Assembly (NCBI GenBank): GCA_050998795.1
Contig: JBPCPU010000079.1
Location: 3,257-67,256, forward strand
Direction: 5' to 3'
Source of the DNA: Pyrinomonadaceae bacterium
GTDB lineage: Bacteria > Acidobacteriota > Blastocatellia > Pyrinomonadales > Pyrinomonadaceae
DNA length: 64,000 nt
Part shown: positions 9,441-54,722 of the stretch, in pieces
How the letters are laid out: every line of letters begins with the position of its first letter
Position numbering within the stretch: position 1 is the stretch's first letter
Position numbers and translations under genes: made by a program
Notes under the pieces: model-generated
What the model was told of the DNA's origin: nothing
Databases searched by the model: none
What the model saw: the letters and a program-made list of their open reading frames with translations, nothing else

Positions 9441-9615
9441 TAAAAACTAAAAAAAACAATCCTTTGCGCTTTTATAAAAGCACAGGCGTTAATGCCTTTG
9501 CTTAAAAAGAACTTGCTCAAAAGTGATTTGTGGTTTATCTTATTTACGAATACACCTAACTTAAAATCCGAGCAAAGCAATTTTCAAAATAATTGTTCTG
9601 AAATTTTTGTGAGTT

Positions 9616-10677
9616 ATGAATAAAACTTTGCTAAAAAACATTGTCTTTACCTGTCTGTTGGTTAGTTTTGCAGCAGTCGGTGATAATTTTGCCCAAACTC
9701 AATCAGAACCTGTCAAACAGGTAAATTTTCGATATTCTCAAAATCCGAAAACGAAATCTAAAACTGAAAATCAAAAATCTACTGCTAATGCGCCAAAAAT
9801 TAATTCTACATTAAAAAGTGTTGAAGAAAATTTAGCTGATAATGAAACAAAACAAAACACTGATTTTGAAAGTCGTTCAGTCGCCGCTAAAACCCTTGAA
9901 GTTGCCAAACGCGCCAACACGGTTGCGGTTTCGCCCACCGAAGTTTATAAAATCGGAATCGGTGATGTTTTGTTAATCAGTTTGCAAAACGCGCCGGGCA
10001 AAGCCGCAAACTATTTTACGGTTTTAACCGACGGGACAATTGATTATCCATTGGCGGGCGAAATGGTTTCGATTCAAGGTTTAACCGCCGAAGAAGCCGA
10101 AGATTTATTAAAGGAAAAGATAAAACTTTATGAAAACCCGCAAGTTGTCGTAAAAGTGCGCGAATTCGCCAGTCACACTTTTACCGTTCTCGGATTGGTA
10201 GAAAAAGCGGGTGAAAAATTTTTGCAGCGCGAAGCAATGCCGTTGTATGTTATACGCGCCGAAGCAATTGTTCAGCCGCGAGCAACCGCCGCATTTATCA
10301 AACGCGCCAATGCGGAAACCGAAAAAATTAATCTCAATGACCCGAAATCAGATGATATATTGATTTTTCCGGGTGATATTGTCGAATTTAAATCTATTGA
10401 AACCGATACCGTCAACGGTCAAACTCCGCAATTCTACTACATCGGCGGCAATGTCAATTCAGGCGGTAAAAAAGACTTTCATCAGGGAATTACGTTGACG
10501 CAGGCGATTTTGGCTTGCGGCGGTTTGCGAAGATCTAATGTAAAAAAGGTCGTTTTGCGGCGCAAAAATCAAGAAGGTTTGCTTTCGCCTTTGGAATTTG
10601 ATTTGAATGCTATTAAAAACGGCAACCAACCTGACCCGATTTTGCAGGCGGGCGATACGATTGAGATTGGGAATTAG
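9616..10677 (+). CDS. Polysaccharide export protein (Wza-like, Poly_export + SLBB domains), orphan copy
   Basis: 353 aa with a signal peptide. YKIGIGDVLLISL...DGTIDYPLAGEMVSIQGLT is the Poly_export motif, and the C-terminal GDTIEI is SLBB-like. Confidence 0.7.
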   Translation: MNKTLLKNIVFTCLLVSFAAVGDNFAQTQSEPVKQVNFRYSQNPKTKSKTENQKSTANAPKINSTLKSVEENLADNETKQNTDFESRSVAAKTLEVAKRANTVAVSPTEVYKIGIGDVLLISLQNAPGKAANYFTVLTDGTIDYPLAGEMVSIQGLTAEEAEDLLKEKIKLYENPQVVVKVREFASHTFTVLGLVEKAGEKFLQREAMPLYVIRAEAIVQPRATAAFIKRANAETEKINLNDPKSDDILIFPGDIVEFKSIETDTVNGQTPQFYYIGGNVNSGGKKDFHQGITLTQAILACGGLRRSNVKKVVLRRKNQEGLLSPLEFDLNAIKNGNQPDPILQAGDTIEIGN

Positions 10678-10720
10678 TTTATTGAGTTTGTTGAGTTTAT
10701 TGAGTTTGTTGAGTTTATTA
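10676..10720. repeat. Tandem 9-mers (gagtttatt/gagtttgtt), left flank of the four-helix-bundle gene
   Basis: About five alternating 9-mer units start at the stop codon of the Wza-like gene. They are the approximate reverse complement of the array at 11113-11142. Confidence 0.85.
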
Positions 10721-10742
10721 CATCAAGAAAAAAGAAAAGAAT

Positions 10743-11111
10743 ATGACAACTTTCAAAAAATTTGAAGGTATTCAAGCGTGGCAAAAGGCTCGACAAGCGA
10801 CAAAAAAGATCTATGAAATTACGAAAAACAAAAATTTTGCGAGAGATTTTGGTTTGTCCGACCAAATTCGACGTGCTTCAGTTTCGGTTATGTCAAACAT
10901 AGCGGAGGGAAACGGAAGAAAAACAAACAAAGACTTTGCAAATTTCCTGGTTATTTCACACGGTTCGGCGGCTGAGGTACAGTGCCAATTATATGTAGCT
11001 CTTGATTTAGATTATGTCAGTAGACAAGAATTTTCTGAGATTTATCAATTATTTGACGAGGTTTCACGGATGACAATGGCTCTTTGCCAACATCTTCTTA
11101 AAACTTCTTAA
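10743..11111 (+). CDS. Four-helix-bundle protein (23S rRNA intervening-sequence protein / Avd-like family)
   Basis: 122 aa. FEGIQAWQKARQATKKIYEIT...LSDQIRRASVSVMSNIAEGNGRKTNKDFANFLVISHGSAAEVQCQLYVALDLDYV is the canonical pattern of this family. Confidence 0.9.
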   Translation: MTTFKKFEGIQAWQKARQATKKIYEITKNKNFARDFGLSDQIRRASVSVMSNIAEGNGRKTNKDFANFLVISHGSAAEVQCQLYVALDLDYVSRQEFSEIYQLFDEVSRMTMALCQHLLKTS

Positions 11112-11112
11112 T

Positions 11113-11142
11113 CTCAAAAAACTCAAAAAACTCAAAAAACTC
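11113..11142. repeat. Tandem 9-mers (ctcaaaaaa x3 + ctc), right flank of the four-helix-bundle gene
   Basis: The array starts 2 nt after the stop codon. It is complementary to gagtttatt/gagtttgtt at 8 of 9 positions per unit. Confidence 0.85.
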
Positions 11143-11200
11143 TACAAACCTAAATTGTAAATGTTGAACATTTTTTGTTAAGATATTTAAGCCTTGCAGA

Positions 11201-11608
11201 GGAACAAGTTGGGCAGTCGCTTTTACATCAAAAATAAAAGAGGAAAGTCCGAACACCGAAGGGCAGCGAGCCGGATAACATCCGGGCGTTTGATTTAAAT
11301 ATCGGACGACGACAAGTGCAACAGAGAACAGACCAGCCGAAAGGTGATGGGTGAAACGGTGCGGTTCAGAAATGAACTTAAAGTAAGAGCGCACCAGCGC
11401 GTTTGGTAACAAGCGCGGCTAGGCAAACTCCTCGCGGTGCAAGACCAAATAGGAAAACGCTTTTTAATTGAATTGCCCGTTCAAAAGTTCGGAGAAATCC
11501 GAACGGCGTTTTCGGGTAGGTCGCTCGAGCTGTTTGGCAACAAACAGCCTAGATGAATGATTGCCGTCTGTTTTTACAGATACAAAACTCGGCTTACAGA
11601 CTTGTTCC
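11201..11608 (+). ncRNA. rnpB: RNase P RNA, bacterial type A
   Basis: The 5' ggaacaagttgggcagtcgc pairs with the 3' acagacttgttcc (P1). Conserved GAGGAAAGTCCGAACACC (P4 5' strand) and ACAAAACTCGGCTTACAG (P4 3' strand) are present, with gggtgaaacggtg and gtaagagcgcaccagc in the specificity domain. Confidence 0.9.
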
Positions 11609-11664
11609 AAATGCCTGGCTTTTTATAAATTTTTATTTGAATCGAAGGAGTAGACAAATTTTTT

Positions 11665-11934
11665 ATGGCAAACCGTAAAGGTGTATTTATCGGGGCGTAT
11701 GTTCCGAATGAGTTAAAAGAATCTCTGCGTCGAAGGGCGGCAGCGGAGCATCGGACGCTTTCGCAGGAAATTACGCGAATTTTGGTCGAAGCCGTTCACG
11801 GTAAAGGTTTACCGGCGGGAAGCGTTGACCGCCGAACGACAAACGCGATTCCGCGCCGCCGTGCGACCGACCCGCCAACCCGTCGCCGCGCCGAAGATTT
11901 ACCGTTTATTGCACACAATGAAGAGGAAAAATAA
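11665..11934 (+). CDS. Ribbon-helix-helix (CopG/Arc-like) DNA-binding protein with Arg/Pro-rich tail
   Basis: 89 aa. GVFIGAYVPNELKESLRRRAAAEHRTLSQEITRILVEAV fits a beta-strand/helix/helix RHH layout. No partner toxin gene is visible. Confidence 0.45.
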   Translation: MANRKGVFIGAYVPNELKESLRRRAAAEHRTLSQEITRILVEAVHGKGLPAGSVDRRTTNAIPRRRATDPPTRRRAEDLPFIAHNEEEK

Positions 11935-11957
11935 TTTATTCGGTTTGAGGATTATAA

Positions 11958-11999
11958 AAAGCGTTGTCGAAATCTAAACGGCGACGCTTTTCGCTTTTT
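11958..11999 (+). terminator. Rho-independent terminator after the RHH gene
   Basis: The stem is agcgttgtcg / cggcgacgct (with G-U pairs), the loop is aaatctaaa, and tttcgcttttt follows. Confidence 0.6.
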
Positions 12000-12027
12000 C
12001 TTGGTAGTTTTGTTAAAATTTTTGTGA

Positions 12028-12762
12028 ATGAACACAAGGATTTTTTGGCTTTCCATTATTGCCGTAATCAGCAGTTTTATCGGCGGTTTTTTGCTGGCAA
12101 ACGCTCTTAATAGAGGCGAAATAAATACGCTTAAAACCGAAAACGGGCGTTTGAAAAATGGTCAAAGTTCGGCAAATCGAGCGGATGCGGAATTATCTTT
12201 GTCGAGTGAGGAAATTCGCCAAAAAATTGCTGAAGCCGATCAAAATCCGAATAATTTTGCTTTTCAAAAAAATCTAGGAATCGCGCTTTATAATTATGCT
12301 TCGATGAAGCAGGATGCTGAATTGTTTGGCGAAATTTCAAGAATCTTAAATCGGGTTTTTGAAAATAATCCAAAAGATACGGATGTCGTGGTGACGCTCG
12401 GCAACATCAATTTTGATATTGGGTATTTGAAGAAAAATAACGAAAAGTTTCAAAAGGCGCGGGAATTTTATCAAAAAGCGTTGGAGCAGAAACCGAATGA
12501 CGCAAATATCAGAACGGATTTGGGTTTGACTTATTTTTTAACAAATCCGCCGGAAACCGACAAAGCAATTGCCGAGTTTCAAAAATCATTGAGTATTGAT
12601 TCAAAACACGAAAAGACTTTGCAGGTTTTGACGCAGGCATTATTGAGCCAAAACAAAGATGCGGAAGCCGAAAAATATCTTGCCCGATTGAAAGAAGTTA
12701 ATCCGAATAATCAAATCTTGCCCGAATTGACGGCGCAGCTTAATCAGAAGAATAACTTATAA
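12028..12762 (+). CDS. Membrane-anchored TPR-repeat protein
   Basis: 244 aa. An N-terminal TM helix (IFWLSIIAVISSFIGGFLLANAL) is followed by TPR-like repeats (AREFYQKALEQKPNDANIRTDLGLTYF, AIAEFQKSLSIDSKHEKTL). Confidence 0.65.
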   Translation: MNTRIFWLSIIAVISSFIGGFLLANALNRGEINTLKTENGRLKNGQSSANRADAELSLSSEEIRQKIAEADQNPNNFAFQKNLGIALYNYASMKQDAELFGEISRILNRVFENNPKDTDVVVTLGNINFDIGYLKKNNEKFQKAREFYQKALEQKPNDANIRTDLGLTYFLTNPPETDKAIAEFQKSLSIDSKHEKTLQVLTQALLSQNKDAEAEKYLARLKEVNPNNQILPELTAQLNQKNNL

Positions 12763-12763
12763 A

Positions 12764-13057
12764 ATGACAAAATTGTTAATTTTACTTATTTTGCTTTTGG
12801 TCGTGGCTTCGATGATTGCTTTGCGTTATCGCCGCCAAATCCAAACCGCGCTGTATGTTTGGCGAATGTTTAGAAAAATGCGTCAAATGGATAAACCTCA
12901 GGAAAAACAAATCGAGAAAAAAGAAAATGCAAAAGATGTCCAACTTATCAGATGTGCGAAATGCGGAACTTGGATTCCGCAAAAAAACGCTCTGAATTTG
13001 CGTTCAAAAGCGTTTTATTGTTCGACAAATTGTATGGAAAATGCGGTTGCGAGATAA
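12764..13057 (+). CDS. Small membrane protein with C-terminal Cys4 zinc-binding motif (PP0621-like)
   Basis: 97 aa. It has an N-terminal TM helix and a C-terminal CAKCGTWIP...FYCSTNC motif. Confidence 0.5.
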   Translation: MTKLLILLILLLVVASMIALRYRRQIQTALYVWRMFRKMRQMDKPQEKQIEKKENAKDVQLIRCAKCGTWIPQKNALNLRSKAFYCSTNCMENAVAR

Positions 13058-13127
13058 TTCAAGATTTAAGATTCCAAATCCATTCCTCAATCTTAAATCT
13101 TAAATCTTGAATCTTAAATCTTGAATC
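13057..13127. repeat. Heptamer-repeat hairpin (aagattt / aatctta, aatcttg) between convergent genes
   Basis: attcaagatttaagattc ... caatcttaaatcttaaatcttgaatcttaaatcttgaat. It uses the same unit family as the intragenic element at 2961-3081. Both convergent stop codons (13055-13057 and 13126-13128) abut its ends. Confidence 0.85.
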
Positions 13128-14022
13128 ATCCCGGTAAAAATGTTTCGATATACCACGAAACCATTTGTTCGCCGAATAATAACGCGACAATCGAACCGAT
13201 GCCGAGGAAAATTCCAAATGGAATTTGCGCTTGAAAATCCTTTTCCTTTTGACGGGAAATGACCAGCATTCCAACTACCGCGCCGGTAAATGCGCCGATA
13301 AAAATTGTCAAAAGCGTCAAACGCCAGCCGAGAAGCGCACCGACGGCGAACATCATTTTGACATCGCCCAAACCCATTGCTTCTACGCCGCGCAGACGTT
13401 TCCAAATTTCACCGACCAGCCACAAAGAACCACCGCCGACAAGTCCGCCCAAAACTGCGCCAAATAACGAAACCAGCCAAATCGGGTAATCTTCCATTTG
13501 ATTTAACGGAGATACTTTGAGGTCTGAAAAATATGAAGCAGACAGGAAAAGCGGAAAAATTAAGCGAACAAGCAATGCAAAAACAAGTAACGGATAAGTA
13601 ATGACATTCGGCAAAATCATATTTTCCGCGTCAATAAAAATCAACGCAATCATCGCAGCGGCAAATATCAATCCAACGGGCAGAAAAGGATTAAAGCCGA
13701 TTTGCCAAAAGACAAGCACAAAAAGTAACGCGGTCAGAAGTTCGACGGCAGGATAACGCGGTGAAATCGGATTTTTACAACTGCGGCATTTTCCGCTCAA
13801 TATCAGCCAGCTTAAGAGTGGAATGTTGTCGTAAGGTTTAATTGACTGTTTGCAGTTCGGGCAAGTCGAATTCGGGAAAACGATTGATTCTTCACGCGGA
13901 ACGCGGTGAATAACGACATTCAAAAAACTACCGACTAACGCGCCGAACACAAAAATAAAAAAATAACCAAAAATTTCAGGCAAACCTGTAATCATTGAAA
14001 AAGAAGATAAAAGAATGTGCAT
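13126..14022 (-). CDS. pilD: Prepilin peptidase / N-methyltransferase (A24 family)
   Basis: FGALVGSFLNVVIHRVP, CPNCKQSIKPYDNIPLLSWLILSGKCRSCKNPISPRYPAVELLTA and GLGDVKMM are the canonical PilD motifs. The track ORF extends to 14103; I prefer the ATG at 14022 (MHILL...), but the start is uncertain. Confidence 0.85.
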   Translation of the reverse strand: MHILLSSFSMITGLPEIFGYFFIFVFGALVGSFLNVVIHRVPREESIVFPNSTCPNCKQSIKPYDNIPLLSWLILSGKCRSCKNPISPRYPAVELLTALLFVLVFWQIGFNPFLPVGLIFAAAMIALIFIDAENMILPNVITYPLLVFALLVRLIFPLFLSASYFSDLKVSPLNQMEDYPIWLVSLFGAVLGGLVGGGSLWLVGEIWKRLRGVEAMGLGDVKMMFAVGALLGWRLTLLTIFIGAFTGAVVGMLVISRQKEKDFQAQIPFGIFLGIGSIVALLFGEQMVSWYIETFLPG

Positions 14023-24852: not shown

Positions 24853-27333
24853 ATGAGAGATAGTCGAGAAATAATTCAAAAAACTGTTGAAACGGTTGAG
24901 GTCGAGCGTCCGTTTGAATCGCAGATGCCTATTGCCAACGGCGGATACGGCGCATATCGGGACGTTAATGTTCAAGACGGTTTTCAACTGGCAACCTACT
25001 GGCGAATCATCCGCAAAAGGTTTTGGCTGGTCATCGGAATTGCGGTTTTGCTGACGACTTTGACCTCGATTTATATGGCGCGGAAGCCGGATATCTATCA
25101 GGCAATGGCGAAAGTTCAAGTTGATTCGGAACAAGCCAACCCGGATTTGGTGACAAACGACCGTCGCGCGCCGCTCACTAATCAGGATTCGTCGTATTTC
25201 AATACCCAACTACAGCTTTTAACCAGCGGAAGTCTTTTGCGTCGAGTAGTAAAAGAACTTAGCCTGGACACCAATAAGGATTTTCTAAAAACCAAGAACG
25301 AAGATTCGGTTTCAGCCTGGCGTTCAATGTTAAGAGCCGTCGGGCTTGCCAGCAGTCCGCCTAAAAAGAACGGAAGCGGGATTGACGAGGTTGCGGTTTC
25401 ACCCAGCACTTCGTTGGCTTCTTCCGAAGAAATAACCGAAGCAATTCGATTAGCTCCATATGTGGATGTTATTAGAAAAAATTTAGGTGTCGATCCAATT
25501 AGAGAATCCCGCACGACCTCAAAAGACACGCGATTGATTGAGATTACTTTCAGGCATACCGACCCTGATCTCGCCGCTTTGATTGTCAACGGCGTTTGCG
25601 AGGTTTTTGCCAAAGTCAATCAGGAAAAACGTACCGGTACAAGCAGCAAGACAAACGACTTTTTGCAGGAACGCATTGCCACTCTCCAATCGGAAATCAA
25701 AAGCGGCGAAATAAAACTGGTGGATTTGACCAGAAAATTCGGTATTCTCAAAACCGATAACGATCAAACGATTGTCTTGAATCGTCTTTCGGGATTAAAT
25801 AAACAAAAGCTTGATTCCGAGAACGATAGAAAAAACGCCGAGGCTGAATATTTTTCGGTGAAGGATTCGCCCGATAGACTAAAGTCGCTGGCTGAAGGCG
25901 AAATATTGCGTTATACCAGCGAAAGAGAAAATGCTATTCAGTCATTAGTAAATAGAACGCAGGAAAAAATTGCCGATTTAAATGCTCAACGGGCTAGACT
26001 TTTGGAAGAGTATTTACCAACCGCACCGGAAATAAAAGAAGCAGATACCCAAATAGAATCATTGAAAAATGATATAAAGAAGGTAACGCAAAACAATCAG
26101 GAAGACCTGGAAGGCTTTCGCAAACGGACAACTCAAGATATATTAAACAACTTAAAAACCAAATATATTAAAGCGAAGACTCAGGAAGACAGCATTCGAG
26201 CGGCTTATGATGAACAGTATAATGAAGCTCAAGGTCAAAATCAGTCGGATGTTTCTTTGCGGCTTTTACAGCAGGAAATAGAAACGAAAAAAGGTTTTCT
26301 GAAAAATCTAACTGACAAACAGCGTGAAAACGACGTTATCGCGGTCGGAACGGACAACAACATCAGCGTGGCGGAGATTGCCATTCCGCCGGAAATTCCG
26401 GTTGCACCGAGAAGATTAACTACCGTTTTGGCGGCGCTGTTTTTGTCTACACTTTTCGGAATGGGTTTAGCGTTATTTCTTGAATATCTTGACGACACCA
26501 TCCGCACGACTGAAGAAGTTGAAAATTATCTGCAGCTACCGGCGCTGGCGGCAATTCCGCGGATTGATTCAATGCCGAAACGCCGACTTTTACTGGTCGG
26601 AGGGAATGACGGCGGGGAAGCATCCCTGACTTCCGAACTGCTAATTCACAACGATTCACGCTCTTCATTAGCGGAGGCTTACCGCCAACTCAGAACGTCA
26701 ATTCTACTTTCAACCGCCGGACGCGCTCCGAAATCGCTTTTGATTACATCGAGTTTGCCCGCCGAAGGTAAAACGACAACGGCTATCAATACGGCAATCA
26801 GTCTGGCGCAGACGGGCGCGAAAGTCTTGATTATTGATGCCGATATGCGCCGTCCGCGGCTTCATTCCATTTTCAATATCAGCAATGCCGGAGGATTAAG
26901 CACACTTCTTTCAACCGAGTTGGCTGATGAAAATTTGATTGATGTAATATCCTACGACGAAGAATCTAAACTTAATCTGTTGCCGTCAGGACCTGTGCCG
27001 CCGAATCCGGCGGAACTTATCGGTTCGGAACAAATGTCAAATTTGCTCAAAAAATTGCAAACACATTTTACGCACATTGTTATTGATTCGCCGCCGATTG
27101 CCTCTTTTACCGACGGAGTTTTGATTGCTTCAATGGTTGACGGCGTGATTCTGGTCGTTCATTCGGGCAAGAGTTCGCGGCAGATTGTGCGCCGCTCAAA
27201 ACAGCTATTGCAGGACATCGGCGTTAAAATTTTCGGCGTTGTCTTAAATAACGTCAATCTTAATTCTCAAGACAATAGTTATTATTATCAAAGTTATTAT
27301 CATCGGGACAATTACCGGCAGGATAATGAATAG
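24853..27333 (+). CDS. Polysaccharide co-polymerase / tyrosine autokinase (Wzc/GumC-like)
   Basis: 826 aa. It has a Wzz-type N-terminal domain with a TM helix and long coiled coils. The Walker A motif is ITSSLPAEGKTTTAINTA, followed by IIDADMRRPRLH. The C-terminal tyrosine cluster is NSYYYQSYYHRDNY. Confidence 0.9.
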   Translation: MRDSREIIQKTVETVEVERPFESQMPIANGGYGAYRDVNVQDGFQLATYWRIIRKRFWLVIGIAVLLTTLTSIYMARKPDIYQAMAKVQVDSEQANPDLVTNDRRAPLTNQDSSYFNTQLQLLTSGSLLRRVVKELSLDTNKDFLKTKNEDSVSAWRSMLRAVGLASSPPKKNGSGIDEVAVSPSTSLASSEEITEAIRLAPYVDVIRKNLGVDPIRESRTTSKDTRLIEITFRHTDPDLAALIVNGVCEVFAKVNQEKRTGTSSKTNDFLQERIATLQSEIKSGEIKLVDLTRKFGILKTDNDQTIVLNRLSGLNKQKLDSENDRKNAEAEYFSVKDSPDRLKSLAEGEILRYTSERENAIQSLVNRTQEKIADLNAQRARLLEEYLPTAPEIKEADTQIESLKNDIKKVTQNNQEDLEGFRKRTTQDILNNLKTKYIKAKTQEDSIRAAYDEQYNEAQGQNQSDVSLRLLQQEIETKKGFLKNLTDKQRENDVIAVGTDNNISVAEIAIPPEIPVAPRRLTTVLAALFLSTLFGMGLALFLEYLDDTIRTTEEVENYLQLPALAAIPRIDSMPKRRLLLVGGNDGGEASLTSELLIHNDSRSSLAEAYRQLRTSILLSTAGRAPKSLLITSSLPAEGKTTTAINTAISLAQTGAKVLIIDADMRRPRLHSIFNISNAGGLSTLLSTELADENLIDVISYDEESKLNLLPSGPVPPNPAELIGSEQMSNLLKKLQTHFTHIVIDSPPIASFTDGVLIASMVDGVILVVHSGKSSRQIVRRSKQLLQDIGVKIFGVVLNNVNLNSQDNSYYYQSYYHRDNYRQDNE

Positions 27334-33874: not shown

Positions 33875-35119
33875 TTGAACAAATTAACCCTGAAAACATC
33901 GAATAAAAATACTCCGAATAAGTTTTATTATGTTTGGAATTATCTGGAATGGGGCGGCGCACAAGTTTTATTTTTCGGTTTGATGAAAGAAGCGAAAAAG
34001 TTCGGAGAAGTTTTGGCAATAATGCCTTCCGGTTCAAACGAACAATTACTCAAGTTTCTGGACAATCTTAAAGTTAAATATGAATTTGTTAATGCTCATA
34101 CCGACGGGAAGTCCGCTTTCACGCTCGGAAGAAAGCTGGCAAGACATTGGAATAAACTTCGCAGCGAGTATATTTTTATTCGTTTTCTGAGTAAGTTAGA
34201 TTTGAAAAGCGGAATAGTCCACACAGAATTTGCGCCCTGGCAATCGTTTCTTGTGTTATGGCTGCTTTCAAAAAAAACACAGGTTTTTTTTACGATGCAC
34301 AATTCGCTGCCGTCTGTTCCGGGATGGCGTTATCTTCAATGGCAAATTAAATTTCGGTTGTTGGCGCGTCTGAAAAACTTTCATATTTTTACCGCCAACA
34401 AAAACACAAAAGAGAGTTTAAGAAGACTCGTTCCGCCGGACGCTTTTGACAAAATTAAAGTGATTTATGCCAATATTGATCCGGAAGAAATTGATGAAGC
34501 CTTAGCTGCGGAGATAAATCGCGCGGAACTTTGCCGAAAATACAATTTGCCGGAAGATAAATTTTTAGTTCTTTGCGTCGGGCAGTTTATCGACCGGAAA
34601 GGACGCTGGATTTTTTTGGAAGCGGCGCAGAAATTACTCGAAGATAATAAAGATATAGCATTTGTTTGGATTTCAAATTCAAAACCGAATGCGGAAGAAT
34701 TGGAAAGAACGGAAAGTTATGGTTTGGGCAAAAATTTTACGCTGATAACTTCCGACCAGGTTGGCACGGAGCATATTGATTTGTTTAAACTGATGCGTTT
34801 GGCTGATGTTTTTGCTCTGCCGAGTTACGTGGAAGGTTTGCCGATTTCGATAATTGAAGCGATGGCGCTCGGCATACCGACAATTTCCACCAATATCAAT
34901 GCCATTCCCGAAGCCGTCAAACATCTTGAAACAGGCTGGCTGATCGAACCCGGAAACAGCGAAGCATTAGTCAACGCCGTCCAAACATTAAAAGACGACC
35001 AAAATTTGAGAAGCGAACTTTCAAAAAAAGGGCGCGAATATGTTTTAGAAAATTTTAACGAGAAAGTTGTCGCAAAAATCGCCGTCGAAAGCTATCTTGA
35101 AGCATTTCGCACAAAATGA
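33875..35119 (+). CDS. Glycosyltransferase family 4 (GT-B)
   Basis: 414 aa with a TTG start. LPSYVEGLPISIIEAMALGIPTISTNINAIPEAVKHLETGWL is the EX7E region. Confidence 0.8.
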   Translation: MNKLTLKTSNKNTPNKFYYVWNYLEWGGAQVLFFGLMKEAKKFGEVLAIMPSGSNEQLLKFLDNLKVKYEFVNAHTDGKSAFTLGRKLARHWNKLRSEYIFIRFLSKLDLKSGIVHTEFAPWQSFLVLWLLSKKTQVFFTMHNSLPSVPGWRYLQWQIKFRLLARLKNFHIFTANKNTKESLRRLVPPDAFDKIKVIYANIDPEEIDEALAAEINRAELCRKYNLPEDKFLVLCVGQFIDRKGRWIFLEAAQKLLEDNKDIAFVWISNSKPNAEELERTESYGLGKNFTLITSDQVGTEHIDLFKLMRLADVFALPSYVEGLPISIIEAMALGIPTISTNINAIPEAVKHLETGWLIEPGNSEALVNAVQTLKDDQNLRSELSKKGREYVLENFNEKVVAKIAVESYLEAFRTK

Positions 35120-36627
35120 TGGAAAACGTCAGACAAGCCGAAACAAGTAAAAGCATTTTCCGAAACATTGTCTACGGTTTTTCAACCTGGATAATACCGC
35201 TAATTTTAAGTTTTTTTGCTACCCGCATCATCGTCAAAACATTAGGCGATAAAGATTACGGAATTTACGCGCTTGTTTTGGGCTTTATCGGATACTCTTT
35301 TAATTTTAGTTTCGGGCGGGCGATTACCAAATATATTGCCGAATATCGCGTCAGCGGCGAAAACGAAAAAATTAAGGACGTTGTTTCAGCGACATTTTTT
35401 ATAAATTTGGCAGTAGGAATTTTCGGTGTTTCGATTATTATTTTTATTTCAAAATGGCTGGTTGTCAGTGTTTATCAGATTGAAGAAGCAAATCAGGAGA
35501 AAACGATTTTAGCTTTACATCTTGCCGCCGCAATTGTTTTTTTCTTAATGATGAGCCAGATTTTTAACGCGGTTTTGCAGGGAATTCATCGGTTTGACGT
35601 CTATTCAAATATTTTTAATCTCAATACGATCGTGATGCTGGCGGGAAATATCTATCTGGCGTTAAACGGTTACGGGTTTTTAGGTTTGTTAGTTTGGAAT
35701 TTAGTCATTTCAGCTTTGACTTGTGTCATTGTCGCCGTTATTTCAAAACGTCTTTTGCCGGAATTCGGTATAAATTTAAGACTTAAACCCGAAGTAGTTA
35801 AACTGGTTTTAGTCTACAGTGCGGGAATAATCGGTTATCAAATTCTCGCCAATCTGTTGATGCTTTTTGAGAGAGGCTGGATAACGCGACAATTAGGCGC
35901 GGAAAATCTGACTTATTATGTTGTTCCGATGCTGCTTTCGTTTTATATTCACGCATTTGTCAGCAGTATTGTTTTGGTGGTTTTTCCGCTCGCCAGCGAA
36001 TTGAAAAACAATCGTGAAAAACTTTTGCGACTTTATACCAAATCAACAAAAATCGTCTGTTTTTTTGTGTTTTTTATGGCAACGACTTTAATGATTGAAA
36101 GTAAGCTGTTTTTAACGCTGTGGCTGGGCGCGGAATTTGCCGATAAAACGTATTTGCTTTTGATTATTCATACCGTTACATTTAGTTTAGTGGCAATTCA
36201 GACGGTTTCCTGGCAGATGACGGAAGGTTTGGGTTATCCCGGCTATAACCTGATAATTTTTGTAATATGTTTGATAATAAATGTTTTATTGGTGGTTGGA
36301 TTAACTCCGGGTTACGGAAATATCGGTGTTGCCTTTGGTAGATTAGCCGGTTTCGGGACGATGTTTTTTTCCATCTATTATGTCGAAAAATGGTTTTTTC
36401 AGCGAGTCCAAACAATATTTTGGTTAAAGCTAATCGGCGCGTTGGCTGTTTCAGCCGTTTTTTCGGCAATTGTTGAAAAGTCTATCATCAGTTATTTTCA
36501 AATCTCCTGGCTGACTTTTGTTTCGGCGACCATTTGCGGCGGCATTATTTATTGTTTGATATTGTGGGTTTTGGGATTTATCACCGACGAGGAAAAACTT
36601 CTGGTCAGACGTATTCTTAACCGTTAA
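35116..36627 (+). CDS. Wzx-like flippase (MOP/polysaccharide biosynthesis protein family)
   Basis: 503 aa with about 12-14 predicted TM helices. The ATGA overlap with the upstream GT and the locus position are typical of O-unit flippases. Confidence 0.7.
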   Translation: MMENVRQAETSKSIFRNIVYGFSTWIIPLILSFFATRIIVKTLGDKDYGIYALVLGFIGYSFNFSFGRAITKYIAEYRVSGENEKIKDVVSATFFINLAVGIFGVSIIIFISKWLVVSVYQIEEANQEKTILALHLAAAIVFFLMMSQIFNAVLQGIHRFDVYSNIFNLNTIVMLAGNIYLALNGYGFLGLLVWNLVISALTCVIVAVISKRLLPEFGINLRLKPEVVKLVLVYSAGIIGYQILANLLMLFERGWITRQLGAENLTYYVVPMLLSFYIHAFVSSIVLVVFPLASELKNNREKLLRLYTKSTKIVCFFVFFMATTLMIESKLFLTLWLGAEFADKTYLLLIIHTVTFSLVAIQTVSWQMTEGLGYPGYNLIIFVICLIINVLLVVGLTPGYGNIGVAFGRLAGFGTMFFSIYYVEKWFFQRVQTIFWLKLIGALAVSAVFSAIVEKSIISYFQISWLTFVSATICGGIIYCLILWVLGFITDEEKLLVRRILNR

Positions 36628-51073: not shown

Positions 51074-52012
51074 GTGCCTGAAATTATAGTATTTTTAATA
51101 GTTTTTATCGCTTCTTATCTCGGCGTGGAAATTTTTCGGCGGTGGAGTTTGAGACGGGAAATTTTGGATTTACCCAACGAGAGAAGTTCGCATACGACAC
51201 CGACGCCGCGCGGCGGCGGATTGGTAATAGTTTTAATAAGTTTAATTTTTTATCTGATATATACAAATCTTGTTTCACATAATTTTTCGTGGAGTTACCT
51301 GTTGGGAGCAAGTTTGATCGCTTCGGTGAGCTGGCTGGACGACATTTTTGATATTTCTTTTGTCTGGCGAATTTTGGTGCATTCCGCCGCCGCACTTCTC
51401 GTAATTCTGACATTAGGATTTTTCGGTGAAATTTATCTTCCATTCGGGCAAAATACCGAACCCGGAATCTTCGGGGCAATACTGACTTTTTTTTGGATAG
51501 TTTGGCTGACCAACGCCTACAATTTTATGGACGGCATTGACGGTATTGCCGGAATGCAGGCGGTTACAGCCGGAATCGGCTGGCTGATAATCGGGGAAAT
51601 TTTAGGATTTAACGACATCGGATTTTACGGCGGCGTGATCGCATTTTCCAGTTTCGGTTTTTTAATTCATAATTGGCAACCGGCAAAAATTTTTATGGGC
51701 GACATCGGGAGTGCATTTTTGGGATACAGTTTTGCCGTTTTGCCGTTATTGGCGAAAAATAAAAGCACTGATTATTATCCGTTATTGCCGGTAATCAGTG
51801 TCGGATTGGTATTTCTTTTTGTCTTTGATACTCTTTTAACTTTTTTTCGAAGGGTTTTAAAAAAAGAAAAGATTTGGCAGGCACACCGCCGTCATATTTA
51901 CCAACAACTTGTCATAAAAGGTTTTTCCCATCGTTCCGTAACACTTTTTTATAGTCTTATTTCATTTATTTTAGTAGGAGCAATCGTATTTTGGTTAAAA
52001 ATCAGAAACTGA
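51074..52012 (+). CDS. Initiating polyprenyl-phosphate sugar-1-phosphate transferase (WecA/WbpL, MraY-like GT4 family)
   Basis: 312 aa with a GTG start and about 10 TM helices. It has SHTTPTPRGGG, NAYNFMDGIDGIAG and FMGDIGSAFLG. Confidence 0.85.
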   Translation: MPEIIVFLIVFIASYLGVEIFRRWSLRREILDLPNERSSHTTPTPRGGGLVIVLISLIFYLIYTNLVSHNFSWSYLLGASLIASVSWLDDIFDISFVWRILVHSAAALLVILTLGFFGEIYLPFGQNTEPGIFGAILTFFWIVWLTNAYNFMDGIDGIAGMQAVTAGIGWLIIGEILGFNDIGFYGGVIAFSSFGFLIHNWQPAKIFMGDIGSAFLGYSFAVLPLLAKNKSTDYYPLLPVISVGLVFLFVFDTLLTFFRRVLKKEKIWQAHRRHIYQQLVIKGFSHRSVTLFYSLISFILVGAIVFWLKIRN

Positions 52013-52263
52013 TTTGATTCTTGAATTCAAAATTAATCGGTTTGTATTTCGTCGTTTTGCGGCAGCGGAAGAGAGCGGGAATGACGGTATTCCGTCAACA
52101 TAACTTTAATTCTATAAAACAACTCTTGAATAAATTTATAATTCGTGGCATACTTTTTCAAAGTCAAAGGACGAAGTTAGTCTGTTTGTCTATTTTGCTT
52201 ACAAAAAACTTGATATTTTGCCAAAATTAAACTAAACTGTTTTGATAAATCGGAGGAGAAAAT

Positions 52264-52758
52264 ATGAATAACCCGCAAATGCCAATCGCCCGCAAAGAAG
52301 GATTAGTAATTCAGGAAATGCCGGACGAAGTATTGGTCTATGATATGGAAACCAACCAGGCGCACTGTTTGAATCAAACGGCGGCATCTGTCTGGAAGTC
52401 GTGTGACGGTGTAAATTCCGTGACGGATATCACCAGGAAACTGGAGAAAGAGTTTAAAACAACAATACCGGAAGATTTGGTCTGGCTGGCGATTGACCAG
52501 CTTTCCAAAGACAAATTATTGGAAAAGGAAATCGAAACCAAAATAAGCGGTCTTTCGCGCCGCGAAGTTATCAAACGAATCGGCTTTGCTTCGATGGTTG
52601 CTTTGCCGGTGGTGGCGATGCTCAGTTTTCCGCAATCGGCTCTCGCGGTTGCTTGTCCGCCATCCCAGCAGGGAACACAGGATGGATGTAATCCGGGACA
52701 ACTGTGCTGTGGTGGAAATTGTGTAGCGGCTCCCAGCGGTACTTGTCCTCCAGCGTAG
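52264..52758 (+). CDS. PqqD-like (RRE) domain protein fused to a twin-arginine-like signal/anchor and a 36-aa six-Cys C-terminal peptide
   Basis: 164 aa with a GGAGGAG Shine-Dalgarno sequence. Residues about 8-95 are PqqD-like (LVIQEMPDEVLVYDMETNQAHCLNQTAASVWKSCDGVNSVTDITRKL...DLVWLAIDQLSKDKLL). Next comes SRREVIKRIGFASMVALPVVAMLSFPQSALA. The tail is VACPPSQQGTQDGCNPGQLCCGGNCVAAPSGTCPPA. Confidence 0.75.
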   Translation: MNNPQMPIARKEGLVIQEMPDEVLVYDMETNQAHCLNQTAASVWKSCDGVNSVTDITRKLEKEFKTTIPEDLVWLAIDQLSKDKLLEKEIETKISGLSRREVIKRIGFASMVALPVVAMLSFPQSALAVACPPSQQGTQDGCNPGQLCCGGNCVAAPSGTCPPA

Positions 52759-52780
52759 TTTTAATCAACTTGTTTGAATC

Positions 52781-52832
52781 AAAACTTGAATACATTTTCA
52801 TCAAAAAAAATGTATTCAAGTTTTTGTTTTTT
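52781..52832 (+). terminator. Strong rho-independent terminator after the PqqD-peptide gene
   Basis: The stem is aaaacttgaatacatttt / aaaatgtattcaagtttt, about 18 bp and perfect. The loop is short and a T-rich tract follows (ttgtttttt). Confidence 0.8.
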
Positions 52833-52882
52833 GGGTCAGGAATAGAAGTTTGATAAAGATTTATAAATTTTTAACCGGGTAA

Positions 52883-53716
52883 ATGACAGATTCTGAAAAA
52901 AATATCAGAGAAGAAATAGACGTTATAAAGTGGCGGGATAGATTTGCCTTTGAGTGTGGCGGAATAAAAGTCGGTGTTAAAATAAATGATTTAAATGTTA
53001 AGTCGAAATTAAAAAAGGTTTTACCCGTTGCCAGTCGGGAAATTGATTTTGGCGAGGCTGATGAAATTTTAATGCTCGTGGTCGGGGAGAACAGACGGGT
53101 CAACGGATTATATTATAAATATGAACTGATACATCAATTCGATGATTGCAATGACGCGCTTTTGAATTTAATCGGCGATAAAATACTAATGTTTTTGGCG
53201 TTAATATCCCTGCCTCGGATATTATACCTGCACGCCGGCGCCGTTAGTTGGAATAATACGGGAATTATTCTGCCGGGCGGTTCGTTCAGCGGCAAAACGA
53301 CGCTGGTTAAAGAATTTATCAAAGCCGGCGCCGATTATATTACCGACGATTTGACGTTGTTAGATATTCGAGGGAATATACTGCCATTCCCGCGCGCTCT
53401 GGCAATCAGGACAAAAAGAGGCAGAGAAATTAAAACGGCTGATTGTTTCGGGGCGAAAACGGTTGCGGAGAATGTCAAACTCAAACTGATTCTTTTCACC
53501 GAGTTTGAAGAGAATGCGCGTTGGAAGCCGGAAATTTTACCGCCCGGACAAGCAGTTCTGAGGTTGATGAACAATTTCTATTATAAACCGTCGGTCAGAG
53601 AAGCGCCGATGCAAATCCTCAGGACTTTAGCCGGAATTACGGACGGAATAAAAATATATGCGGGCAAAAGAGGCAACGCTAAAAGTGTGATAAATTGGGT
53701 GGTGAAAAACTTTTAA
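52883..53716 (+). CDS. HPr kinase-like P-loop kinase (HprK-related kinase)
   Basis: 277 aa. LHAGAVSWNNTGIILPGGSFSGKTTLVKEFIKAGADYITDDLTLLD matches the HprK C-terminal domain pattern (H-x-G-x-V...G-x-S-G-x-GK-S/T...DD). Confidence 0.7.
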   Translation: MTDSEKNIREEIDVIKWRDRFAFECGGIKVGVKINDLNVKSKLKKVLPVASREIDFGEADEILMLVVGENRRVNGLYYKYELIHQFDDCNDALLNLIGDKILMFLALISLPRILYLHAGAVSWNNTGIILPGGSFSGKTTLVKEFIKAGADYITDDLTLLDIRGNILPFPRALAIRTKRGREIKTADCFGAKTVAENVKLKLILFTEFEENARWKPEILPPGQAVLRLMNNFYYKPSVREAPMQILRTLAGITDGIKIYAGKRGNAKSVINWVVKNF

Positions 53717-53732: not shown

Positions 53733-54722
53733 TTGATGAACCAGGCGGACGATAATTTTTTTCAAAATACTGCAGCCAACCGTGTCGGCACAGTCCGGGC
53801 GTCGGCTGAAATTTATCAAATGCTCATGTTTAAGGTATATGAGAAAAAGCTCCAAAATATATGGAAGCATTTTGAAGACAGTCAAATCGAGCCGATTTTG
53901 ATAAAAGGCTGGTCTGCCGCGATTAATTATCCGCAGCCTTTCCTGCGTCAACTGGGAGATTTTGATTTGGCGGTAAATCCCAATTGTTTCGACAAAGCAG
54001 AGAAATTACAGAAGCATTCGGACTTGCGCGAAGTTGATTTACATAAAGGATTAAGGCATCTGGATACGGTCGGTTGGGATGATTTGGCGAAGAATTCGGT
54101 TTTGGTAAAATGCGGCGAAGTTAGTATTAGAGTTTTAAGACCGGAAGATCATTTACGTGTCTTGTGCGTGCATTGGTTGAACGACGGCGGTAGAGAAAAG
54201 GAAAAATTGTGGGATATTTTTTATGCGGTCAAAAGCCGCCCCGCCGATTTTGATTGGGAGAGGTGTTTGGGAGTTGTCAGCGAAAGGCGAAAAAAATGGA
54301 TAATTTACGCCATCGGGCTGACTCACAGGTATTTCGGACTGGAGATTGAAGATAATCCGGTTGCTCAAGCGGCAAAAAAATTGCCTCGATGGTTAATAAA
54401 AGCAGTCGAAAATGAATGGAATAATCCGGTTGAATTTAAATATCTGCAAACATGTCTGCGGAACAGAAAAGAATTTTTCAAACAATTACGAAAAAGATTT
54501 CCTCCCAATCCAATCCAGGCAACCATTGAGATGGAAGGTGATCTGGATAGCCATAAAAGAATTTTTTATCAAATTGGCGACTTTTTCTTGAGATTTCTGC
54601 CTTCAGTGCGAAGAATCTTAAAAGTTGCCGCTAATAATGGAAAATGGAAAATGGAAAATGAAAACAATGGAAAATGGATAGTATTTTATCTTTCACATTA
54701 TCCATTATCCATTATCCGTTGA
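53733..54722 (+). CDS. Uncharacterised nucleotidyltransferase family protein (PF14907-like)
   Basis: 329 aa. ILIKGWSAAINYPQPFLRQLGDFDLAVNP matches the K-G...Y...R...GD-x-D-L pattern of that family. The last roughly 30 residues (NNGKWKMENENNGKWIVFYLSHYPLSIIR) are read from the repeat element at 54633-54746. Confidence 0.6.
   Translation: MMNQADDNFFQNTAANRVGTVRASAEIYQMLMFKVYEKKLQNIWKHFEDSQIEPILIKGWSAAINYPQPFLRQLGDFDLAVNPNCFDKAEKLQKHSDLREVDLHKGLRHLDTVGWDDLAKNSVLVKCGEVSIRVLRPEDHLRVLCVHWLNDGGREKEKLWDIFYAVKSRPADFDWERCLGVVSERRKKWIIYAIGLTHRYFGLEIEDNPVAQAAKKLPRWLIKAVENEWNNPVEFKYLQTCLRNRKEFFKQLRKRFPPNPIQATIEMEGDLDSHKRIFYQIGDFFLRFLPSVRRILKVAANNGKWKMENENNGKWIVFYLSHYPLSIIR

Follow-up and report, generated by a model that had tools for sequence, protein, structure and literature searches.

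Why should a PqqD-like domain be followed, within a single polypeptide, by an internal signal-like segment and a Cys-rich tail, and what would such a gene make? The question is raised by an open reading frame at positions 52264 to 52758 (+ strand) of the analyzed window, a 64,000-nt stretch of DNA from a Pyrinomonadaceae bacterium. We consider it fairly probable that the product is the precursor of a disulfide-rich mini-peptide destined for export and that an RRE domain, joined in cis with an internal signal peptide, serves as its leader. Searches of the full-length protein against NCBIfam and Pfam returned a PqqD match only, with no curated model of the whole family found, and an architecture combining an RRE, a twin-arginine segment, and a Cys-rich tail was not found described in the literature, two RRE survey papers included. 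The family appears to represent a novel route to secreted mini-proteins.

Three-part layout and the PqqD/RRE-fold domain

The sequence contains a ribosome-binding site (GGAGGAG; positions 52252 to 52258, + strand) 5 nt upstream of the ATG, and the start residue M1 is kept in 97% of 121 relatives. The 164-aa translation is identical to that quoted in a previous sequence-only reading of this DNA, and the three-part layout proposed there (PqqD-like domain, Tat-like segment, and Cys-rich tail) was borne out by the translation and by family comparison. Orthologues devoid of the tail, which would have spoken against that reading, were not encountered: an extension after the PqqD domain, both present and patterned, was found in every one of the ∼265 relatives examined.

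The PqqD/RRE-fold domain (residues ∼8 to 92; positions 52285 to 52539, + strand) consists of three strands followed by three helices, as indicated by PF05402, AlphaFold2 (AF2), and Foldseek. PF05402 covers residues 22 to 67 (E 4e-8; 33.8 bits versus a Pfam cut-off of 23.4), and AF2 modeled residues 10 to 90 with a pLDDT of ∼90, placing strands at 14 to 18, 22 to 27, and 32 to 37 and helices at 38 to 46, 53 to 64, and 70 to 82. Foldseek comparison with the PDB ranked the lasso B1 RRE TbiB1 at the top (TM 0.77; rmsd 2.5 Å), with PqqD (5sxy) and another lasso B1 protein (6jx3) among the further matches. The above-cut-off Pfam match, the modeled fold, and the TbiB1 similarity support the earlier assignment of the N-terminal part as RRE-like. 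A profile of the family against PDB sequences detected marginal PqqD similarity only (E 0.7), and the scores of the NCBIfam PqqD, ScmD, lasso, and HPr-rel-A models were all under their cut-offs. Residues A9, R10, V15, Q17, E22, L24, D27, A33, L36, N37, W44, C47, G49, I56, A76, L80, and L85 are invariant in the domain. RREs bind peptides along strand 3 and helix 3, and the best-conserved surfaces of the family are strand 3 (A33, H34, C35, L36, and N37) and helix 3 (W74, L75, A76, D78, Q79, and L80). The AF2 model of the full-length protein yielded no confident contact of the RRE with either the signal segment or the tail (pLDDT <50 at residues 112 to 138), which counts against the precursor reading.

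The structural relatives raise the question of whether the protein is merely an ordinary stand-alone PqqD/lasso-B1 chaperone whose C-terminal extension has no meaning or a member of a conventional lasso cluster. Its best fold matches are indeed lasso B1 proteins, TbiB1 in the leader-bound state, and the locus unites the same three protein types that stand side by side in the paeninodin and pseudomycoidin clusters, namely, a B1-type PqqD-like protein, an HprK-like kinase, and an NTP_transf_5 protein. These last two are known lasso tailoring genes: a Ser in the precursor is phosphorylated by the kinase, and the phosphate then receives a hexose from the nucleotidyltransferase (PMC8498205). The patterned extension shared by all relatives nonetheless argues against this explanation, as do the sub-cut-off scores of all NCBIfam PqqD and lasso models. 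Furthermore, neither an Asn-synthase-like cyclase nor a transglutaminase-like B2 protease was detected within ±10 kb in four family loci (L001, L002, L004, and L005) or in the ten largest remaining ORFs of the window. The locus also lacks the ABC exporter and the separate small precursor of lasso systems; its substrate-like peptide is carried by the RRE protein itself, downstream of a signal peptide, and the tail has no C-terminal Ser. We therefore regard a lasso-type or plain PqqD identity as hardly credible.

A twin-arginine-like segment behind the folded domain

The domain is followed by a linker with a Tat-like n-region (residues 93 to 107; positions 52540 to 52584, + strand) that contains the motif S98-R-R-E-V-I-K104 and an invariant G107. 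Next come an uncharged hydrophobic h-region of 18 residues with invariant P115 and P123 (residues 108 to 125, FASMVALPVVAMLSFPQS; positions 52585 to 52638, + strand) and the c-region A126-L-A128 (positions 52639 to 52647, + strand), where signal peptidase I is predicted to cut after A128. Conservation of the Arg pair, which the sequence-only reading had named as a check, proved complete: RR is present in 265 of 265 relatives, although the basic residues at +4 and +5 exchange K for R freely (174:86 and 180:65, respectively). In the same set, S/T precedes RR in 245 sequences, +2/+3 are hydrophobic, +4/+5 are K/R, the spacing from RR to the cleavage site is constant, and a charged residue interrupts the h-region in only two; no indels occur in the h-region of 121 sequences. 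These features are kept far beyond chance expectation. The A-x-A site noted earlier is also a family trait, since position −1 is A, G, or S in 259 of the 265 (∼98%) and position −3 is mostly occupied by A (172), V (41), or S (21), with I, L, T, and G as further residues.

Two Tat-signal HMMs, TIGR02811 and TIGR01409, matched 48 and 30, respectively, of 88 diverse family segments (E ≤0.1), and no other model recurred more than three times; one distant member scored above the TIGR01409 cut-off (23.3 versus 16.7). The proposal of a Tat-like segment is thus upheld by SRREVIK and by the family-level matches, but not by the segment of the 52264-52758 protein itself, which gave no match to Tat HMMs (TIGR01409 and PF10518) at E ≤10, nor by composition, given that an A/V/L-rich core and a rarely basic c-region are Sec-like traits. 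Compared with Sec signals, those of the Tat type have an h-region of lower hydrophobicity and higher Gly content, often followed by a basic c-region, although the two kinds overlap functionally (PMC7317946). In this family, the h-region departs from the moderately hydrophobic, Gly-rich type, showing a mean Kyte-Doolittle value of 2.2, an A/V/L/S/I composition, and 1% Gly, and the c-region is basic in 34 of 265 relatives (13%). No tatA-like gene was found within the 64-kb window.

These observations bear on whether the same cleaved precursor might instead be exported unfolded by Sec, through SecA or SRP, with RR retained for another reason, e.g., contact with the RRE domain or the kinase-like protein. 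The hydrophobicity of the h-region and the lack of a Tat HMM match for the protein's own segment both suit this route. So does the precedent of the Cys-rich bufferin precursors, which travel via Sec (PMC11626156), and a small peptide oxidized after export would have no need of Tat. Nevertheless, Sec n-regions are under no RR-type sequence constraint (PMC7317946), and it is difficult to reconcile this with an Arg pair that never varies next to freely swapped basic residues. Conservation of the full S/T-R-R-x-hydrophobic-hydrophobic-K motif and the fact that the sole recurrent HMM matches were Tat-signal models point the same way, and a domain of ∼95 residues folding ahead of the signal would be better suited to post-translational hairpin insertion. 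Judged from these sequence features, Tat seems the likelier export route, and we rate Sec export as a possible but on the whole unlikely alternative.

A further alternative is that the hydrophobic segment is never cleaved. The protein would then be bitopic, with a cytoplasmic RRE, one transmembrane helix, and a small disulfide-stabilized outer stub, and would either tether the kinase-like and NTP_transf_5 proteins to the membrane for polysaccharide or cell-envelope biogenesis or signal across the membrane. A segment of 18 to 21 residues with this hydrophobicity could span the membrane, and the basic residues on its N-terminal side fit the positive-inside rule. The three genes also recur at or inside Wza/Wzc/Wzx-type loci in differing arrangements, and known internal Tat signals serve as membrane anchors (PMC3471235, PMC5449189). 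What weighs against an anchor is that the −3/−1 site, together with the helix breaker P123 at −6, is near-perfect in ∼98% of the 265 relatives whatever comes next. The two invariant prolines within the segment, the allele-like hypervariability of the presumed ectodomain, which would be odd for a structural stub, and the absence of a sigma factor or DNA-binding partner close by in the locus contexts examined are additional counterarguments. An uncleaved protein is therefore improbable in our judgment. Of the two outcomes entertained by the sequence-only reading, a type II anchor and a leader removed upon export, the retained −3/−1 rule favors the latter. We also discarded a lipoprotein, in that the first Cys lies at no fixed distance from the h-region and the −3/−1 pattern is kept even in the many members where that Cys is far downstream (AxA-QS...).

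According to the precursor reading, the signal segment would insert as a hairpin, most likely into the Tat translocase and alternatively into Sec, while the RRE remains cytoplasmic. The hydrophilic 36-aa tail would pass through the membrane, signal peptidase I would cleave after A-L-A128, and three disulfides would close outside the cytoplasm. The segment shares with Tat signals the motif S-R-R-x-hydrophobic-hydrophobic-K, an h-region, and A-x-A, and the association of a peptide-binding module with a Tat signal is reminiscent of TorD/DmsD/NapD-type chaperones. In contrast to these chaperones, the candidate binder here belongs to the same polypeptide and adopts an RRE fold; unlike usual Tat substrates, the cargo is tiny and cofactor-less, and the h-region is more hydrophobic than typical. 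The segment is not N-terminal, as its motif begins at residue 98 behind a folded domain. Precedents for such an internal position come only from dual Sec-Tat membrane proteins (PMC3471235, PMC5449189), where the signals follow Sec-inserted helices instead of a soluble folded domain. If the reading is true, a twin-arginine signal behind a folded domain with an attached peptide-binding module would be a natural export test case, with a bearing on hairpin insertion, signal shielding, and the reason for a tiny peptide to use Tat.

The Cys-rich tail and its variation

The putative mature peptide, a 36-aa Cys-rich core, corresponds to residues 129 to 164 (VACPPSQQGTQDGCNPGQLCCGGNCVAAPSGTCPPA; positions 52648 to 52755, + strand). 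Its six Cys residues follow the spacing C-10-C-5-CC-3-C-7-C, as had been read from the translation, and with three disulfides it has a predicted monoisotopic mass of 3381.34 Da and a pI of ∼4. Tails of the family are hydrophilic, rich in C, G, A, T, S, and P, and nearly free of aromatic residues. Their Cys count is even in 258 of 265 cases (97%), the odd ones looking frameshifted, and this supports the earlier placement of a disulfide-bonded tail outside the cytoplasm. As to conservation of the Cys pattern, the even number was kept across relatives but the exact framework was limited to ∼4 to 8 close ones, among >70 frameworks in the family; most tails carry 8 to 18 Cys residues in other arrangements. 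A cargo with an Fe-S or metal cluster as the reason for Tat is unlikely, with Cys counts of 6, 8, 10, 12, and 14, all even, and no CxxCxxC-type motifs.

The sequence-only reading had gone further and recognized in the Cys spacing the framework of inhibitor-cystine-knot peptides. The framework C-C-CC-C-C is indeed that of knottins, and a conserved pre-region ahead of a hypervariable mature part with a fixed Cys scaffold is also seen in cone-snail toxin precursors. A canonical C-6-C-5-CC-3-C-4-C tail occurs in some distant family members, and these gave Pfam matches, all below the cut-offs, to Conotoxin_I2, Toxin_19, Toxin_12, Omega-toxin, and Tryp_inh. In contrast, the tail of the 52264-52758 protein had no Pfam match. 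AF2 on this single sequence predicted a β-hairpin at tail residues 18 to 27 (pLDDT 81), and Foldseek found nothing in the PDB below E 8 for the model. Loop 1 usually spans 3 to 7 residues in inhibitor cystine knots, and here it has 10. With neither a Pfam nor a Foldseek match and with a framework that is not conserved family-wide, membership of the tail in the knottin class is unproven.

The family is very large and acidobacterial, comprising 8437 representative clusters, 1285 of them at E ≤1e-30. Between close genomes, nucleotide identity is 0.93 to 0.98 in the leader and 0.49 to 0.60 in the tail, and the drop from ∼0.95 to ∼0.5 coincides exactly with the tail, which is thus a hypervariable island. 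The leader has a dN/dS of 0.06, whereas the tail is elevated at synonymous and nonsynonymous sites alike. Certain tail types nevertheless show perfect conservation, with pN 0 at pS 0.4 to 0.5. We found no template-repeat copy of the tail in the 64-kb window and therefore rejected a diversity-generating retroelement as the source of the variation. The sequence-only reading was silent on family size, on the two conserved enzyme neighbors, and on the way in which hypervariability is sharply confined to the tail. Acidobacteria are abundant in soil and difficult to culture. If the precursor reading is true, their genomes would hold a vast and rapidly diversifying stock of disulfide-rich mini-proteins, part of it built on the canonical knottin framework. 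Such peptides would be of interest both as scaffolds and for what they may reveal about the cell envelope or relations between strains, and genome mining that counts PqqD matches as accessory would miss thousands of such precursors.

Neighboring genes and the proposed docking function

Downstream of the precursor gene lie, on the same strand, genes for an HprK-related P-loop kinase-like protein of 277 aa (positions 52883 to 53716, + strand), with a GGSFSGKTT Walker A motif and YITDD, and for an NTP_transf_5 nucleotidyltransferase of 329 aa (positions 53733 to 54722, + strand; PF14907, E 3.6e-17, above the cut-off). A search of PDB sequences returned no relative of the former and one marginal relative of the latter. 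Both genes adjoin the precursor gene in ∼90% of 80 loci, evidence drawn largely from one syntenic class, Blastocatellia. The kinase-like gene lies on either side of the precursor gene, one locus (L080) has all three genes inverted together, and the trio also occurs in a distant lineage of 58% GC. Among distant loci, L086 has both enzyme genes, L088 has NTP_transf_5 but no kinase-like gene, and L090 shows the converse. Orphan or tandem precursor copies with neither enzyme within ±7 to 8 kb (L024, L049, L087, and L089) count against the precursor reading.

The best NCBIfam matches were the models of the HPr-rel-A (TIGR04352, kinase A; TIGR04353, PqqD chaperone) and SynChlorMet (ScmC/ScmD) systems, which likewise pair an HprK-related protein with a PqqD-family protein. 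Unlike in those systems, the scores were far under the cut-offs, at 40.2 bits versus 200 for the kinase-like protein with TIGR04352 (E 2e-10; Pfam Hpr_kinase_C was weak), 18.8 versus 35 for the PqqD part, and, in a further comparison with these models, 24.7 versus 100. A different parallel is offered by bufferins and other MNIO-modified RiPPs (DUF2282, BUF_6/12Cys), which are also Cys-rich and long for RiPPs, carry a general-secretion signal, are cut by signal peptidase, and reside in the periplasm with a disulfide (PMC11626156, PMC12710340). Bufferin precursors have a Sec signal peptide and an RRE-like partner protein (PMC11626156). They thus differ in their N-terminal Sec-type signal, separate RRE-like protein, and MNIO enzyme from the present system, where the RRE lies in cis upstream of the signal, the signal has a twin-arginine motif, and the neighboring genes code for a nucleotidyltransferase and a kinase-like P-loop protein.

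What, then, would the fused domain do? We propose that it is a built-in cytoplasmic docking or holding module. It may bring the kinase-like protein and NTP_transf_5 to the tail, an option suggested by the co-occurrence of the same three protein types in lasso clusters, or it may bind the conserved signal segment that follows it and release this only once the protein is ready. By analogy with the lasso clusters, the cis-fused RRE probably docks the two neighboring enzymes, and these may modify the core. Two findings count against modification, i.e., a kinase-like protein far under the curated cut-offs and a tail without a C-terminal Ser. This residue, present in only 9 of 265 tails, was discarded as a conserved phosphorylation target; S/T among the first four mature residues is found in 245 of the 265 and is likewise absent from the 52264-52758 protein. 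The general pattern expected of a RiPP precursor, a conserved leader and a variable core beside candidate enzyme genes, was found.

A bolder interpretation, rather doubtful at present, takes the gene as the founding case of a new phylum-wide ribosomal peptide class. The cis RRE would dock the HprK-like kinase and NTP_transf_5, and these would decorate the core before it leaves the cytoplasm; too bulky for SecY in this form, the core would exit via Tat by means of the internal twin-arginine signal, with signal peptidase I serving as the leader protease. The resulting peptide would resemble a knottin and be locked by disulfides, close strains would exchange its sequence like an allele cassette, and its role in the envelope might be that of an inhibitor of nearby Peptidase_C25 giants or of a strain-specific ligand or toxin. 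If the precursor reading is true, a precursor with its own recognition element would break the RiPP rule of a separate short precursor and a trans RRE, and general export and signal peptidase machinery would double as the RiPP leader protease. For the precursor reading itself, the evidence suggests that the mature peptide works in the cell envelope in the manner of a ligand, an inhibitor, or a toxin, because the tail varies as alleles do around a conserved Cys scaffold and because its genes recur at or near polysaccharide gene clusters, including export loci, and are adjoined by Peptidase_C25 giants in distant lineages.

Finally, an intrinsic-terminator-like 18-bp stem-loop with a T-run (positions 52781 to 52834, + strand) separates the precursor and kinase-like genes and is possibly an attenuator. 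The 95-nt stretch that contains it (positions 52756 to 52850) has an MFE of −23.8 kcal/mol (z −4.6), and Rfam searches of the gene and its flanks gave nothing beyond spurious hairpin hits on the terminator. A comparable hairpin and T-run lies 3′ of 68 of 82 family genes, versus 37 of 170 random windows.

Architecture and family of the proposed precursor

Translation of the ORF at 52264..52758 (+), which is preceded 5 nt upstream by the ribosome-binding site GGAGGAG, confirmed the 164-aa protein of the earlier sequence-only reading. Its N-terminal part, described there as PqqD-like, is covered at residues 22-67 by Pfam PF05402, with a score above gathering. The AF2 model (pLDDT about 90 over the RRE region) matched leader-bound TbiB1 best in the PDB (TM 0.77, 2.5 Å), followed by PqqD and a second lasso B1 protein. 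In a 121-sequence alignment, conservation is very strong over residues 1-92, where the 17 invariant positions include strand 3 (A33-H-C-L-N37) and helix 3 (W74-L-A-x-D-Q-L80), which form the peptide-binding face of solved RREs. Two cysteines inside this cytoplasmic domain, C35 on strand 3 (52366-52368; conserved in 98% of the 121 sequences) and C47 (52402-52404; 100%), could constitute a redox or metal site. The middle segment runs from S98-RREVIK-RIG through FASMVALPVVAMLSFPQS to A-L-A128, and the cysteines of the last 36 residues are spaced C-10-C-5-CC-3-C-7-C, as previously claimed. Among known kinds, the protein fits best as a Cys-rich, RiPP-like precursor that bears a signal peptide, with the RRE fused in cis and the twin-arginine signal placed internally.

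A word-indexed search returned no fewer than 1518 relatives; all of the 120 best-scoring ones are full-length (159-197 aa). Profile searching of 1.84 billion cluster representatives gave 8437 matches at E<=1e-3, of which 1285 reach E<=1e-30; the top 150 span the whole profile, with lengths of 120-302 aa. In GTDB species representatives, a pair of narrow peptide patterns was enough to retrieve 496 confirmed stretches. All named sources are Acidobacteriota, mostly Pyrinomonadaceae/Blastocatellia and Chloracidobacterium, with the one exception of a MAG labelled Actinomycetota (locus L059, JBDTZT010000214.1). This contig carries the complete Pyrinomonadaceae-type synteny (GT4, epimerase, WecA, kinase, precursor, NTP5, TsaB) and is probably mis-binned. 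The window itself clearly belongs to a genome of Pyrinomonadaceae type. Every NCBIfam model scored below cut-off on the precursor, the Pfam scan recognised the PqqD part alone, and literature searches did not find the combination of PqqD/RRE, twin-arginine signal and Cys-rich tail described. This architecture is of high interest: it is robust and unannotated, occurs in huge numbers and can be tested directly.

Signal conservation and export route

The RR pair is present in all 265 relatives examined, preceded by S/T in 245 and by N in 17. Positions +2/+3 after it are hydrophobic and positions +4/+5 basic, with free K:R exchange at the latter (174:86 and 180:65). G107, P115 and P123 are invariant or almost so, and the distance from RR to A-x-A shows zero indels across the family. 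At -1, 259 of the 265 members have A/G/S; at -3, 172 have A, 41 have V and 21 have S. The A-x-A is retained even where Q-S comes next and the first Cys sits far downstream, a pattern incompatible with a lipobox and in favour of cleavage by signal peptidase I. Between the two alternatives originally proposed, a type II anchor and removal on export, persistence of A-x-A whatever follows favours removal; an uncleaved anchor seems improbable.

As to the route, we lean towards Tat. The RR is invariant beside freely swapping K/R, a constraint that Sec n-regions do not show (PMC7317946). One distant member's segment scored 23.3 with TIGR01409 (cut-off 16.7), and among 88 diverse family segments TIGR02811 matched 48 and TIGR01409 matched 30 at E<=0.1, whereas none of the other models, out of 18,950 compared, recurred more than 3 times. 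Export through Sec, a lesser possibility, would agree with the 15-residue hydrophobic core (Kyte-Doolittle mean 2.2, Gly 1%), with a basic c-region in 13% of members only and with the window's own segment, which matches no Tat-signal model; the Tat-like character first read in this segment therefore holds by motif and at family level but not in its own model matches. An internal Tat signal is unusual but not forbidden, since dual Sec-Tat membrane proteins work with internal Tat signals (PMC3471235, PMC5449189) and the N-terminus of the signal remains cytoplasmic on hairpin insertion (PMC7317946).

Composition, cysteines and evolution of the tail

Family tails are 25-117 aa long (median 47), rich in C/G/A/T/S/P and almost devoid of aromatic and large hydrophobic residues. 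Tat cargo can be small unstructured hydrophilic proteins, and this composition fits such cargo. Of 265 tails, 258 contain an even number of cysteines (4 to 18), with a binomial value of 1.5e-68 that, the sequences being related, is not a true probability. This parity is maintained through many independent Cys frameworks. Paired cysteines in a bacterial protein point to extracytoplasmic disulfides and thereby to an N-in/C-out topology. Members with odd or zero Cys counts (the tail at locus L034 and proteins P0019, P0133, P0168, P0178 and P0184) mostly have aberrant C-termini unlike the family, and most look like frameshifts, assembly errors or pseudogenes. Separately, 25/121 tails (about 20%) carry a Lys/Arg-rich extension past the last Cys, e.g., ...SGSKKQR (P0031-P0040, P0070, P0102), which is absent from the window's protein and could be a sorting signal or polyanion binder.

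The tail had been likened to knottins, and the C-C-CC-C-C pattern is indeed there. Single-sequence AF2 folds it with pLDDT 81 and a predicted beta-hairpin, but the window's tail has a long first Cys loop and zero Pfam or Foldseek matches, so that membership is unproven. Distant members with C-6-C-5-CC-3-C-4-C tails matched knottin families exclusively, all below threshold (Conotoxin_I2, E 6e-4; also Toxin_19, Toxin_12, Omega-toxin and Tryp_inh). The tail is therefore knottin-like in pattern and, for part of the family, possibly in fold. The family is not defined by a knottin framework: across relatives the RR is kept, whereas Cys spacing varies over >70 distinct frameworks.

In 27 close gene pairs, the leader (RRE plus signal) has a dN/dS of 0.06 (pS 0.41, pN 0.035), and the tail has pS 0.64 and pN 0.18. 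Nucleotide identity between close genomes falls from 0.93-0.98 over the RRE and signal to 0.49-0.60 over the tail and recovers to 0.8-0.93 in the next gene, a drop that coincides exactly with the tail. In locus L028 compared with L032/L034/L078, this hypervariable island occupies gene nt about 400-540 (equivalent to window 52648-52758), with synonymous sites near saturation. Because synonymous sites are raised too, the pattern looks less like simple positive selection than like old polymorphism or the cassette-like replacement of alleles. A search within the window for the template repeat of a diversity-generating retroelement found none. Conservation is perfect in certain tail types (pN 0, with pS 0.4-0.5), which indicates that individual tails are functional.

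Gene neighbourhood and putative modification

A perfect 18-bp hairpin with a T-run (52781-52834) separates the precursor stop codon from the kinase-like gene, and the 95-nt stretch around it (52756-52850) has a folding z of -4.6. Terminator-like hairpins with T-runs follow 68/82 family genes versus 37/170 random windows. Such an arrangement is characteristic of small, highly expressed genes placed before enzyme genes; the hairpin may act as an attenuator and so set the ratio of precursor to enzymes. Downstream lie an HprK-related P-loop protein (52883-53716; Walker A GGSFSGKTT and YITDD motif, far below curated cut-offs) and an NTP_transf_5 protein (53733-54722; Pfam E 4e-17). The three genes are adjacent in most of 80 loci, with the kinase-like gene on either side of the precursor; in L080 all three are inverted together with respect to the neighbouring genes. 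The trio also occurs in L086, from a lineage with 58% GC in which the member's tail is of canonical knottin type, and L088 and L090 hold partial sets. Duplications occur in L002 (second copy, 11692-12174), L008, L017 and L065, and orphan or tandem copies in L024, L049, L087 (8001-9335) and L089 (7421-8720). The paralogues in all these loci carry differing tails.

In lasso clusters, the HprK-like kinase acts on a Ser of the precursor, and the phosphate it attaches then receives a hexose from an NTP_transf_5 enzyme (PMC8498205). Both enzyme types are shared with the trio, whereas neither lasso cyclase nor B2 protease was present within +-10 kb in L001, L002, L004 and L005 or among the ten largest other ORFs of the window; a role of the two enzymes on the tail is putative, by analogy. 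Were the tail decorated, Tat would have a rationale, because bulky modifications would make poor SecY substrates according to the bufferin authors (PMC11626156). A conserved C-terminal Ser was not found across family tails, which counts against modification of the lasso-kinase type. S/T does occur within the first four residues past the predicted cleavage site in 245/265 members, against about 57% expected from tail composition, and is a candidate modification site; the window's mature N-terminus, VACP, lacks it.

The RRE fold, the conserved twin-arginine/hydrophobic/A-x-A segment, the hypervariable even-Cys tail and the two linked enzyme-like genes form the basis of the mechanism we propose. 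The RRE would act in the cytoplasm, either docking the two neighbouring enzymes or holding its own conserved signal. The signal would insert as a hairpin, more probably through Tat than Sec, and the tail would then cross the membrane. Cleavage by signal peptidase I after A128 and formation of three disulfides would yield a 36-aa peptide of 3381.34 Da (predicted pI about 4). This scheme is weakened by orphan or tandem copies, some of which lack both the kinase-like and the NTP_transf_5 gene within +-7-8 kb, and by the AF2 model, which showed no cis contact between the RRE and the rest of the precursor.

In the window, the trio closes a same-strand Wza/Wzc/Wzx-type polysaccharide locus (23781-52012) with Wzc (24853-27333), a flippase (35116-36627), WecA (51074-52012), an epimerase and many glycosyltransferases. 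The trio or precursor likewise adjoins Wza/Wzc in L086 and L090 and GT4/WecA/Wzy in L088. Close to the L024 copy is an Rhs/YD-repeat toxin gene (9436-13962, minus strand). In three distant lineages, giant Peptidase_C25 (gingipain-like) proteins are neighbours of the precursor or of the trio (L086, 1-7755; L088, 9636-12680; L090, 8878-11700), so the Cys-rich peptides may conceivably be partners or inhibitors of proteases.
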